From: a virus
Taxonomy: Duplodnaviria; Heunggongvirae; Uroviricota; Caudoviricetes
Strand: one strand, 5' to 3'
Virus record (IMG/VR): IMGVR_UViG_2711768060_000003
Length of the DNA: 10,239 nt
Below the pieces are notes generated by a model that did not search any database, was not told the origin of the DNA, and worked only from the letters and a program-made list of their open reading frames with translations. Of the stretch, positions 7,387-9,038 are shown in pieces (position 1 is the first letter of the stretch; each line of letters starts with the position of its first letter). Position numbers and translations under genes: made by a program.

Positions 7387-7772
7387 TGAACAGGTTTCGA
7401 CGCCTGCTTACAAACGCGGATGCCCGGATAACCCGGGCATTTGCTGAAGAGGTACCTGCATATCTGTTTCTTCAGGGAGGAGAAAAACGGCCTGTAATGG
7501 TGATATTCGAATCGCCGGATGCAACCGTCGGGATCCGTGACGGCGGTGAAATTAATGATCATGCACCAGCCTTCAGTGCTATGACAGCAGATATTTCCGG
7601 GTTAATGAAACGTGATCAGGTGGAAATTAATGCTGATGTTTTTCATGTGACGCATATTGGCGCTGATGAGGAAGGGCGTACACGGGTTACTCTCGCGCGG
7701 GGAGAACCCGGAAGAAGTACACCTGCTGCACCGGAACGACCGAGTAAACGTTATGGCAGTCAGAGAGCATGA
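7386..7772 (+). CDS. Head-tail adaptor / head-tail joining protein (128 aa)
   Basis: Start ATG 7386 overlaps the upstream stop as TGATG. Position after capsid and decoration genes. Motif …VFHVTHIGADEEGRTRVTL… recalls the phage head-tail joining family. Confidence 0.5.
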   Translation: MNRFRRLLTNADARITRAFAEEVPAYLFLQGGEKRPVMVIFESPDATVGIRDGGEINDHAPAFSAMTADISGLMKRDQVEINADVFHVTHIGADEEGRTRVTLARGEPGRSTPAAPERPSKRYGSQRA

Positions 7773-8475
7773 ACGAAGCAGTGCCCGACAGCGACGGCTG
7801 GCACGAAACCTCGTCGTCGATATTGATGAAGATGAGGTGCTGAAAATTGTCGCTAAACTGGGTGGGTCAAAAAGTCAGATCCGTAAAGCCTGGGGCGTGG
7901 CGCTGAAAAGAGCCGCGTCTGCACTGCGGATGAAGGCTATGGCAGAGTTTAAAAAACAGGTTGCCCCACGCAGTCAGAAAATGATCAAAAAGCGTGTTCT
8001 GCATAATTTTATCATTCGTCGTAACGGTGATGAGTTTGATGAGGCGAAGGTATGGTTCGGTCTGAACGCCATCAAAGTACGCGATCTGCGCGGACGCATC
8101 AGTGGGGGACGACGCGGTGAACGCCATCAGTTGCGCGATGAGCGGGGGCGTTTTGCACCAGCTTCCCGCCGCAGGGAGGCACGGGAGGTCCGTTTTAAAC
8201 CTGCCGGGGAATCCCTGCCTGTCACCACCTGGTCAACGGATGATGCCTTTATCAACCAGTTCGAAGCGGAAAATCGTAACGGACGTATATCAAAAAGGAA
8301 AACGATACTGATCCGACAGGCATCCGGACGACGGAGGGTGCGTGAAGCGGAAATTGATATTTATGAAGCCATGCTGAACCGTATCGAGGATTTTGTTTTT
8401 CCGGATGCGGAAGCACTGATCCTGAAAAATTTTGAGCATGAACTGAAATTCCGGGTATTTAAGGGGCTGGAGTGA
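7753..8475 (+). CDS. Hypothetical Arg/Lys-rich virion morphogenesis-position protein (240 aa from ATG 7753; ORF open from TTG 7657)
   Basis: Long ORF in the late operon between the head-tail adaptor and baseplate genes. Very basic (e.g. GRRGERHQLRDERGRFAPASRRREAREVRF). No family recognised. Start uncertain: TTG 7657, ATG 7666 or ATG 7753. Confidence 0.5.
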   Translation: MAVREHERSSARQRRLARNLVVDIDEDEVLKIVAKLGGSKSQIRKAWGVALKRAASALRMKAMAEFKKQVAPRSQKMIKKRVLHNFIIRRNGDEFDEAKVWFGLNAIKVRDLRGRISGGRRGERHQLRDERGRFAPASRRREAREVRFKPAGESLPVTTWSTDDAFINQFEAENRNGRISKRKTILIRQASGRRRVREAEIDIYEAMLNRIEDFVFPDAEALILKNFEHELKFRVFKGLE

Positions 8476-9038
8476 TGGAGCCATTGATGATGGGCGCCTG
8501 GCATCAGGCGGTGATTGACAGTCTGAAACAAATTCCCTGGGTGGAAGATGCCGATGAGTACCCGGAAAAAGTGACGCAACTGGTGACGCCTGCCGTGTTT
8601 GTGGATGTGCCTGGCTGGGACAAAGCTCCGTTTGCCAGCGGACAGACGCGGGTCACGCTGAAATGTGATCTGTTTGTGGTGACAGACCGGGTCGGGAAGA
8701 CGGAAAACGTGCCAAAACCGCAGATTTTTGCCCGTTGTCTGGCGATGGATTTATCTGACTGGATTGAGGGAGCCACGTTCGGGCTGGATAACGTTGATCC
8801 GGCGGTTTTTATCGATGCTGAGGTGGATACCTTCGACCGGCTGCTGGATGACTACATCGTTTTCCGTGTCTCTTTTGAACAGGACATTCCGGTCGGCGAA
8901 GATCCGTTTGCGGTTCCGGCAGGTGCACCGTTACAGGAAGTCTGGCTGGGTAAAGTACCGGAAACCGGCAAGAGACATGAGCAGGATTATCGTCTTATCT
9001 GGAAATCGGAGGGCACCGGTGATGAGTCTGGCGGATGA
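8475..9038 (+). CDS. Hypothetical acidic phage structural/assembly protein (about 187 aa), possible tail-completion analogue
   Basis: ATG 8475 overlaps the upstream stop as TGATG. Alternative ATG 8487 has GGAG (8477-8480) 6 nt upstream. Lies immediately before gpV, the slot occupied by tail-completion genes R and S in P2. No confident family assignment. Confidence 0.5.
   Translation: MEPLMMGAWHQAVIDSLKQIPWVEDADEYPEKVTQLVTPAVFVDVPGWDKAPFASGQTRVTLKCDLFVVTDRVGKTENVPKPQIFARCLAMDLSDWIEGATFGLDNVDPAVFIDAEVDTFDRLLDDYIVFRVSFEQDIPVGEDPFAVPAGAPLQEVWLGKVPETGKRHEQDYRLIWKSEGTGDESGG

Follow-up and report, generated by a model that had tools for sequence, protein, structure and literature searches.

Tail completion proteins (TCPs) and tail terminators have been described in several phages and tailocins, and their genes follow a canonical order in which the TCP gene lies immediately 5′ of the terminator gene (PMC11099176, Table 1). 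The TCP fold, as seen in 80alpha gp51 (PDB entry 9MU2), comprises a long N-terminal helix, a loop/β insertion and a long C-terminal helix. Among the proteins of the terminator class, PA0615, the collar of the R2 pyocin of Pseudomonas aeruginosa (PDB entries 6U5F and 6U5J), is the product of the first gene of the R2 cluster PA0615–PA0628 (PMC1250226). The collar has been described as a force transducer (PMC10996793). The C-terminus of gp37 of phage Mu binds the sheath (PMC11915804). In phage lambda, the C-terminal loop of gpFII touches gpU, the ring of which is acidic (PMC10721106). The terminator of phage P2, gpR, is homologous to the tailocin cap (bioRxiv 10.64898/2026.09.14.750843).

The window analysed here is a stretch of 10,239 nt from a virus of the class Caudoviricetes (IMG/VR record IMGVR_UViG_2711768060_000003). 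Its region 7753–9038 is filled by two overlapping plus-strand open reading frames, ORF1 (7753–8475, 240 amino acids) and ORF2 (8475–9038, 187 amino acids). The first-pass annotation had described one basic and one acidic product at these coordinates, and the calculated values bear this out (isoelectric point 10.95 and net charge +22 for ORF1, 4.27 and −18 for ORF2). We conclude that the two are very probably the head-proximal completion proteins of a contractile tail of the P2/R-pyocin type, encoded in one late operon with the head and baseplate genes. This reading draws on the family and fold assignments of both proteins, on the invariant synteny of their genes, on the coupled translation of these genes and on their inheritance together with the tail.

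The genes 5′ of the pair encode a head of lambda type. They comprise a small terminase (588–1085), a gpA-type large terminase (1085–3202), a gpW-like adaptor (3193–3417), a lambda-family portal (3426–4937), a fusion of ClpP protease and major capsid protein with its 3′ end at 6984, a cement protein (approximately 7057–7386) and, on the plus strand at 7365–7772, an FII-like head–tail joining protein of 135 amino acids. The latter, a stopper or head closure protein, matches PF05354 Phage_attach (E 1e-11), PHROG 82 ‘head closure Hc1’ (E 3e-26) and NF049848 tail_join_FII (E 8.5e-9). The lambda order read from these genes at first pass holds for the terminase, gpW-like, portal and protease/capsid genes; the small terminase belongs to DUF1441 and PHROG 141, outside the Nu1 Pfam family to which it had been likened, and the cement and FII-like genes had been missed. 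The lambda order also runs on past the capsid gene, where the FII-like, Z-like and terminator genes correspond to lambda FII-Z-U.

The genes 3′ of the pair, all on the plus strand, are of P2 type. They encode the baseplate spike gpV (9022–9645, 207 amino acids; TIGR01644 phage_P2_V, E 8.7e-20; RefSeq homologue named ‘phage baseplate assembly protein V’), the gpW/gp25 baseplate wedge protein, or sheath initiator (9679–10035, 118 amino acids; PF04965, E 1.2e-15; PHROG 43, E 5e-38), and the 5′ part of the baseplate gene gpJ (10010–10239), which is cut by the window end and whose full-length homologue in E. coli A19 (23013–23927) matches PF04865 Baseplate_J (E 2e-23). No sheath, tube or tape-measure gene lies between the head genes and V, W and J. 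The hybrid architecture proposed earlier is confirmed: the head is of lambda type, and the tail behind it is of P2 type and keeps the P2 gene order. ORF2 lies directly 5′ of gpV, as PA0615 does in the R2 cluster, and in both cases a P2-type tail cluster begins there.

The genes of the pair are tightly interlocked with each other and with their neighbours. ORF1 runs from an ATG at 7753 to a TGA at 8475 and overlaps the 3′ end of the FII-like gene by 20 nt. The ATG of ORF2 at 8475 overlaps the ORF1 stop codon (TGATG), and ORF2 overlaps gpV by 17 nt at its 9038 end.

The first-pass annotation found no family to which either protein could be assigned. This holds for Pfam-A and NCBIfam, which gave nothing significant for ORF1, ORF2 or any member of their first alignments, and for RefSeq, in which the homologues of both carry the name ‘hypothetical protein’; it does not hold for PHROGs, for profile searches of PDB sequences or for fold comparison. 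A UniRef label ‘DUF3168’ on one relative could not be reproduced by Pfam-A and NCBIfam searches. Megablast of positions 7000–10239 against isolated phages gave no match, and relatives surfaced at the protein level only.

The profile and fold comparisons identify ORF2 as a tail terminator of the pyocin-collar type. A 44-sequence ORF2 profile matches the R2 pyocin collar PA0615 (6u5f_A/6u5j) with an E-value of 2.5e-8 over an envelope of residues 3–166 of 171, the sole match among PDB sequences at E ≤ 1, and a 9-sequence profile matches the same protein with an E-value of 6e-5. The AF2 model of ORF2 (pLDDT of 81.3 and pTM of 0.70) contains the terminator core fold, a β-sheet flanked by two helices. 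With this model, Foldseek returned 33 PDB matches at E ≤ 1e-3, and every one is a chain from a terminator, cap, collar or neck region. The pyocin collar ranks first (E 3e-8, TM-scores of 0.63 and 0.71); behind it come A-1(L) gp7, Mu (9khy), monocin, T5 p142, lambda gpU, and the GTA and diffocin terminators. For gpU and the GTA terminator, the target-normalised TM-score reaches 0.72. ORF2 also matches PHROG 1072 (E 2e-49), a family labelled ‘unknown function’.

PA0615 and ORF2 are similar in size (171 and 187 amino acids, respectively) and align in their C-terminal regions, albeit with only about 20% identity. The C-terminal extension of ORF2 is highly conserved (P152, L158, G159, P162, G165, H168, D171 and Y172) and aligns to the C-terminus of PA0615. 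The R2 pyocin is headless, and its collar has neither a stopper to dock nor an adjacent TCP gene, whereas ORF2 must also have a face on which the FII-like ring can dock. Lambda gpU, T5 p142, Mu gp37 and A-1(L) gp7 share the terminator core fold with ORF2 (Foldseek E 1e-6 to 1e-3) and likewise have genes located 3′ of the TCP gene, but their sequence similarity to ORF2 is undetectable, with 10–17% identity in structural alignments. Like Mu gp37 and other terminators of myophages and contractile systems, ORF2 continues at its C-terminus past the gpU-sized core; gpU and p142 are without a sheath-binding arm.

ORF1 is assigned to the lambda gpZ family of tail completion proteins on the basis of profile comparisons. 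It matches PHROG 27 ‘tail completion or Neck1’ nearly end to end (E 3.3e-28, residues 15–239 with profile positions 4–194 of 199), and lambda gpZ does so as well (E 3e-69). It took a widening of the ORF1 alignment to 116 sequences to make the relationship with gpZ clear. With a narrow alignment, hhalign was negative for lambda gpZ (probability 0.3) and gave a weak match to the WO Z protein (28.8%, E 6e-4), whereas the broad alignment matched gpZ with 96.2% probability (E 2e-9, 134 columns). PF06763 Minor_tail_Z is matched by 44 of the 116 family representatives (best E 1e-12), and ORF1 alone has no match in Pfam even at E ≤ 10; its connection to PF06763 is therefore transitive, through the family, and ORF1 represents a divergent branch that the current Pfam model does not cover. 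The family has few members: at 50% identity and E ≤ 0.001 it counts 191 representatives out of 1.84 billion.

Among PDB sequences, the narrower ORF1 profile gave repeat and ribosomal matches only, which were judged spurious, and the broad 116-sequence profile gave zero matches, so that the gpZ family appears to be without a solved structure detectable by sequence. Only two of the five AF2 models of ORF1 are confident, and Foldseek found nothing in the PDB at E ≤ 1e-3. The architecture tentatively predicted, a β-domain inserted between long terminal helices, would agree with that of published gpZ-type TCPs (PMC11661146) and with the prediction for lambda gpZ. The gene is in the position expected of a TCP, after the FII-like gene and directly before the terminator gene, and the lambda gpZ gene similarly lies between FII and the terminator gene. 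ORF1 differs from gpZ in being 48 amino acids longer, in serving a contractile rather than a siphovirus tail, and in an additional Arg-rich segment (residues approximately 117–145), which has no aligned counterpart in gpZ and is modelled at low confidence. Judged by its charge alone, this segment may face the DNA, and it could be a lineage-specific clamp for the DNA end or the tape measure adapted to contractile tails.

Every one of the 80 related IMG/VR loci keeps the order FII–ORF1–ORF2–gpV, within the reach of its contig. Either of two head types and either of two arrangements of the tail genes may surround this block, and all four combinations occur. The annotated order in phage yong2 and Wolbachia phage WO matches it; like the window, both have lambda-type terminase, gpW, portal and capsid genes, followed by FII-like, Z-like (PHROG 27), PA0615-like (PHROG 1072) and gpV genes. 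In five more isolated phages (Chris1, Valp1 and three vB_EcoM phages), tblastn coordinates place ORF1 and ORF2 next to each other, as in the window, and Burkholderia vB_HM795 has a match to ORF2 only. The relatives of ORF2 extend to Wolbachia WO, Burkholderia and Vibrio phages, with 27–52% identity for the proteins of WO, yong2 and Citrobacter phage Chris1. There are differences in the surroundings: WO has a PAAR gene 3′ of V, and in Hafnia phage yong2 the genes from sheath to D are placed ahead of W-J-I.

The first-pass annotation had offered two readings, namely that the proteins are divergent tail-completion analogues or that they are cargo inserted at a recombination joint. The latter, in which the ORFs are a moron, defence or anti-defence gene, could draw on the genuine mosaic joint 64 nt 5′ of ORF1 and on two proteins that are ‘hypothetical’ in RefSeq and lack a Pfam domain. 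However, cargo would not be expected to persist as a pair in all 80 loci, regardless of head type and of the order of the tail genes, and both genes overlap their neighbours. No sigma-70-like promoter was found in 6900–10239, the hairpins in this interval are weak and intragenic with no convincing terminator for either ORF, the GC content of both (0.52–0.54) is similar to that of the flanks, and neither matched in PADLOC. Together with the strong structural-family assignments, these observations make accessory cargo scarcely credible, and we reject it. The former guess was right, in that ORF1 falls in the gpZ family and ORF2 in the terminator/pyocin-collar family. The clear matches to known neck and tail-completion families, with synteny from enterobacterial phages to Wolbachia WO, are the very outcome that the first-pass annotation had named as refuting its reading, and its view that the pair matches no nameable family is not supported.

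A closer competitor takes ORF1 and ORF2 as true, much diverged orthologues of P2 gpS and gpR. The pair occupies the slot of R and S directly 5′ of V-W-J-I-H-G, the PHROG labels put gpR (‘tail terminator’) and gpS (‘tail completion or Neck1’) in the same functional classes, gpR is itself homologous to the tailocin cap according to the P2 cryo-EM preprint (10.64898/2026.09.14.750843), and the remaining tail genes are likewise of P2 type (Baseplate_J, sheath, tube FII, gpE chaperone, gpU and gpX). Profile searches nevertheless place neither ORF in the sequence families of P2 gpR or gpS: hhalign gave a probability of 0.06 for the 44-sequence ORF2 profile with gpR and 0.2 for the narrow ORF1 alignment with gpS, the PHROGs differ (1072 versus 65 for ORF2 and gpR, 27 versus 26 for ORF1 and gpS), neither ORF matches the Pfam families of gpR and gpS, and phmmer with gpS found no match among the 148 ORF1 family representatives listed. 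Moreover, the TCP gene precedes the terminator gene here, whereas R (the terminator) precedes S in P2. Orthology with the P2 pair is therefore very unlikely. The P2 terminator also differs in docking on the unusual adaptor gpL and not on an FII-type stopper. Somewhat less improbable than orthology, though still unlikely, is that ORF1 is a gpZ-family protein that acts away from the neck, as a T5 p143-like monomer at the tail tip or baseplate or as a non-virion assembly factor. The location of TCPs in virions is unsettled, since T5 p143 was found on the side of the tail tip (PMC11784142) and gpZ, which was detected by mass spectrometry, is unresolved in lambda virions (PMC10721106); the account of the P2 virion structure does not mention gpS among its resolved proteins either. 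Against this, 80alpha gp51, the only TCP resolved at high resolution in the neck, is in the lumen and touches the tape measure and DNA (PMC11661146), the authors of the T5 study doubt that p143 is a typical TCP (PMC11784142), and the net charge of ORF1 would suit a DNA-facing position.

For the preferred reading, in which ORF1 and ORF2 are a TCP and a terminator of the neck, we infer oligomeric state, virion location and order of assembly from the relatives of the two proteins. ORF2 most likely forms a hexameric ring that would cap the last ring of the tube once the length set by the tape measure is reached, with its gpU-like N-terminal body sitting on the tube. Its conserved C-terminal arm (WLGxxPxxGxxHxxDYRLI) may join the last sheath ring by β-strand augmentation, and in this way couple the contraction of the sheath to the movement of the tube, as the collars of pyocin and diffocin and Mu gp37 do. 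The arm was modelled as a monomer at low confidence (pLDDT 53–57), so this handshake with the sheath is suggested by sequence conservation and by the relatives. When the filled head arrives, its FII-like stopper ring would dock on the acidic top face of ORF2. ORF1 is probably added to the finished tail at low copy number, by analogy with 80alpha gp51, SPP1 gp16.1 and lambda gpZ; it would lie in the lumen at the level of the terminator, touching the N-termini of the tape measure and the DNA end, and productive joining to heads, or proper delivery of the DNA, would depend on it.

The pair is a routine, under-annotated neck module, and both proteins are ordinary phage neck parts. This widespread hybrid, in which a lambda-type head is joined to a P2/pyocin-type tail, thus has a complete conventional neck, made up of adaptor, stopper, TCP and terminator, and current models of phage assembly are unchallenged. 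The main value of the assignments lies in annotation: ORF2 can be named a tail terminator (pyocin-collar type), and the name gpZ-family tail completion protein can be given to ORF1 and its RefSeq homologues.

The junction of head and tail modules proposed at first pass is real, but it is located at about 7689, 64 nt 5′ of ORF1, and not within or after the two ORFs. In E. coli prophages an exchange point lies inside the 3′ end of the FII-like gene (7685–7695, a feature without strand). Among the megablast matches listed, nine that are confined to the right-hand portion of the query start at 7689–7695. The prophage of STEC316, the head of which is entirely different and of true lambda type, is matched in blastn at 1–341, weakly at 358–434, and then at 7689–10239 with 97.2% identity, and nowhere else; the DNA alignment switches from divergent to near-identical at about 7689. 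The FII-like gene is accordingly the last gene of the head module, with its 3′ end from about 7689 forming part of the tail-side homology block, and the C-terminal 27 amino acids of its product are common to the FII of an unrelated head module. Given the position of the exchange point, both ORFs are inherited together with the tail. An exchange point within the 3′ end of a stopper gene provides a small, concrete example of phage module compatibility.

A tentative extension, which we consider possible but not probable, is that the short, basic C-terminus of the FII-like stopper (its last 15–27 amino acids, TLARGEPGR-TPAAPERPSKRYGSQRA) is a portable docking peptide inherited with the tail module and not with the head. 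If so, this peptide, moving together with ORF1 and the acidic terminator ORF2, would let heads of the lambda E/D type and of the ClpP–capsid fusion type plug into the same contractile tail, and the 3′ end of the FII-like gene would be a functional exchange point, beyond a merely homology-driven one.

Several minor features of the region were also considered. Terminator-like hairpins within ORF2 (8732–8804) are weak, lie in a conserved coding region and were taken as chance, and minus-strand open reading frames across the region (for example 8504–8776 and 7867–8127) were taken as shadows of the coding strand. An in-frame GTG at 8472 is the mechanical start of ORF2. The start at 8475 is supported by the N-terminus of the family, M-x-E/K-P-L, in which P3 is invariant in nine sequences, and the RefSeq start of the ORF2 homologues in prophages is located 12–15 nt downstream of 8475.

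The window is a single plus-strand late operon of a prophage, within which ORF1 and ORF2 form an ordinary, under-annotated neck module. Exactly two ORFs lie in 7753–9038, one basic and one acidic, as the first-pass annotation had described. ORF1 (plus strand, 7753 (ATG) to 8475 (TGA), 240 aa) overlaps the last 20 nt of the preceding gene (7365–7772) and is strongly basic (pI 10.95, net charge +22). ORF2 (plus strand, 8475 (ATG) to 9038, 187 aa) is acidic (pI 4.27, net charge −18); the A of its start codon is shared with the ORF1 stop (TGATG), and its 3′ end overlaps gpV (ATG 9022) by 17 nt. 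Both have a GC content of 0.52–0.54, and the flanks are alike. No sigma-70-like promoter was detected in 6900–10239, where the sole convincing terminator-like hairpin is located at 6987–7006, just 3′ of the capsid gene. This strong plus-strand hairpin with a T-run (AACCGCCGGGCAGGGCGGTT TTTTTAT), 3 nt past the stop codon of the ClpP-protease/capsid fusion, may be an attenuator that cuts neck and tail gene expression relative to the capsid gene.

The surrounding genes listed previously were all recovered, all on the plus strand: upstream, the small terminase (DUF1441/PHROG 141), gpA-type large terminase, gpW-like adaptor, lambda-family portal and protease/capsid fusion, and downstream, P2-type gpV (TIGR01644, E-value of 9e-20), gpW/gp25 and the start of gpJ. 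That list lacked two genes, located after the capsid gene and before ORF1: one for a cement protein (PF09956) and one for an FII-like head–tail joining protein (7365–7772; PF05354, PHROG 82 ‘head closure Hc1’, NF049848 tail_join_FII). The mechanical ORF of the fusion, 4744–6984, opens at GTG 4744; its RefSeq homologues start at the equivalent of 4894, with a 44-nt overlap with the end of the portal gene (4937). The fusion combines a ClpP-type protease with a Phage_capsid_4/Mu gpT-like capsid protein and replaces lambda C/Nu3, D and E, so the head is not strictly lambda-like.

ORF1 belongs, as a divergent member, to the lambda gpZ family. It matches PHROG 27 (‘tail completion or Neck1 protein’) over nearly its full length (E-value of 3.3e-28), and this family also matches lambda gpZ (3e-69), the Wolbachia phage WO ‘minor tail protein Z’ (6e-33) and the homologue in Hafnia phage yong2 (9e-23). 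ORF1 alone falls short of the Pfam model PF06763 (Minor_tail_Z), which places it on a divergent branch; in an alignment of ORF1 with 115 full-length representatives, 44 of the 116 sequences match that model individually (best E-value of 1e-12), and the whole alignment matches lambda gpZ in hhalign (probability 96.2%, E-value of 2e-9, 134 columns). An exhaustive profile search retrieved just 191 representatives (E ≤ 0.001) out of 1.84 billion, many of them gpZ-sized (175–200 aa) and aligning as two stretches, suggesting that these relatives lack the middle segment of ORF1. An Arg-rich segment, residues ~117–145 (window ~8101–8187; GGRRGERHQLRDERGRFAPASRRREAREV), fails to align with lambda gpZ. 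It is the only portion of the family profile matched by two very long proteins, P0214 (1582 aa) and P0257 (764 aa), with 8–11 matches in each, so the segment behaves as a basic low-complexity repeat.

The AlphaFold2 model of ORF1 (pLDDT 76) comprises N-terminal helices, a central β domain and a long C-terminal helix, in agreement with the architecture published for gpZ-type proteins, in which a β domain is inserted into an 80α gp51-like helical frame (PMC11661146). In lambda, gpZ is the last protein added to the tail, and its absence leaves particles of normal appearance with ~500-fold lower infectivity. SPP1 requires gp16.1 both to join heads and to route DNA into the cell (PMC11099176). In the neck of 80α, monomeric gp51 sits inside the lumen, bound to the N-termini of the tape measure and to the end of the DNA (PMC11661146), whereas T5 p143 is at the tail tip (PMC11784142), so any location of ORF1 is one that we infer.

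ORF2 belongs to the PA0615 collar/terminator family. It has no name in Pfam, NCBIfam or RefSeq, and its own family, PHROG 1072, is labelled ‘unknown function’. The single solved match of a nine-relative profile is the R2 pyocin collar PA0615 (PDB entries 6U5F and 6U5J; E-value of 6e-5), which a 44-relative profile matches with an E-value of 2.5e-8 (envelope residues 3–166 of 171). The AlphaFold2 model has a good core (pLDDT 81, pTM 0.70), and Foldseek places two pyocin collar chains on top (E-values of 3e-8 and 7e-8; TM-score 0.63/0.71) of 33 matches at E ≤ 1e-3, followed by the terminator or cap proteins of cyanophage A-1(L), Mu, monocin, P74-26, T5 (p142), lambda (gpU), a gene transfer agent and diffocin. 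Terminators and collars of this type are described in the literature as hexamers capping the tube. In contractile systems, β-sheet augmentation joins their extended C-terminus to the last ring of the sheath (Mu gp37, PMC11915804), so that the collar links contraction of the sheath to motion of the tube (diffocin, PMC10996793). The C-terminal extension of ORF2 is highly conserved (WLGxxPxxGxxHxxDYRLI) and aligns with the PA0615 C-terminus; its low confidence in the monomer model is expected of a segment ordered only on assembly.

The order of the FII-like gene, ORF1 and ORF2 is that of lambda FII–Z–U, and the canonical layout has the tail completion gene just before the terminator gene (PMC11099176). 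Both ORFs are represented in Hafnia yong2, Citrobacter Chris1, Vibrio Valp1 and several E. coli vB_EcoM phages; Burkholderia vB_HM795 has an ORF2 match only. The neighbours in Wolbachia WO are annotated ‘minor tail protein Z’, ‘similar to hypothetical protein of Pseudomonas aeruginosa’ and ‘GPV of phage P2’. WO (KX522565) also carries a PAAR-motif gene at 9913–10167, between gpV and gpW, which is missing from the window and its E. coli relatives. Across related IMG/VR loci, the FII–ORF1–ORF2–gpV block is present in 80 of 80, as far as each contig reaches. The head type is lambda-E in 42 of these and ClpP-capsid fusion with cement in 35; the order downstream is V-W-J in 45 and V-sheath in 29. 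Either tail order occurs with either head type (lambda E/D, or fusion with cement), the four combinations being seen in 35, 22, 9 and 6 loci. The window follows V-W-J-I-fibre-sheath-tube...D; the alternative in yong2 (8487–17479) is V-sheath-tube-...-D-W-J-I. The closest full relative, a prophage of E. coli A19 (91% identity over 362–10239), goes on through J, I, fibre, chaperone, sheath, tube, E, tape measure, U, X and D, which is the P2 order. The R2 pyocin cluster is presumably arranged likewise, with PA0615 as its first gene. That cluster spans PA0615–PA0628 (PMC1250226).

The two proteins had been assigned to no family and read as either divergent tail-completion analogues or cargo. The former reading holds: both match known neck or tail-completion families, with conserved synteny. 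They probably work like P2 gpS and gpR but lie outside those sequence families, and their gene order is reversed relative to P2, in which the terminator role is filled by gpR, described as a tailocin cap homologue (bioRxiv 10.64898/2026.09.14.750843). Cargo fails every test run, being ruled out by the invariant presence of the pair, its translational coupling, the lack of regulatory signals of its own, its matching composition and the lack of any PADLOC match for ORF1 or ORF2.

The sole mildly new lead is a recurrent exchange point in the C-terminal tail of the stopper. The prophage of E. coli STEC316, with a true lambda head (Nu1-A-W-B-C-D-E-FI-FII), matches the window only at 1–341, weakly at 358–434, and at 7689–10239 (97.2%); divergent sequence gives way to near-identity within the final 27 codons of the FII-like gene. 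These codons (7689–7772) share 97% DNA identity with 20001–20084 of the L001 prophage, the head of which is otherwise unrelated, and, among the E. coli matches listed, the nine confined to the right-hand part of the query begin at 7689–7695. Between loci that differ in head type but have an ORF1 identity of 85% or more (80 pairs), the FII body is 37% identical and the last 15 residues 93%, as against 42% and 13% for the same head type with ORF1 below 60%, the pairs being non-independent because many IMG/VR loci are near-copies of one another. Across 77 IMG/VR loci, these 15 residues co-vary with the ORF1 lineage, not with head type. The comparisons suggest that the 3′ end of the FII-like gene is a recurrent head–tail exchange point, and its C-terminal tail is possibly a docking peptide for the terminator. 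Since the acidic gpU ring of lambda is contacted by the gpFII C-terminal loop (PMC10721106), the co-inherited basic tail may, by analogy, mediate docking of the stopper on ORF2.

Two proteins are composite. In P0027 (217 aa), an FII-like N-terminus is followed by the last two thirds of an ORF1-like protein, and P0109 (194 aa, ‘terminase small subunit’) contains ~30% of an ORF2-like sequence; both probably arose by deletion or rearrangement in decayed prophages, or are chimeras of assembly.
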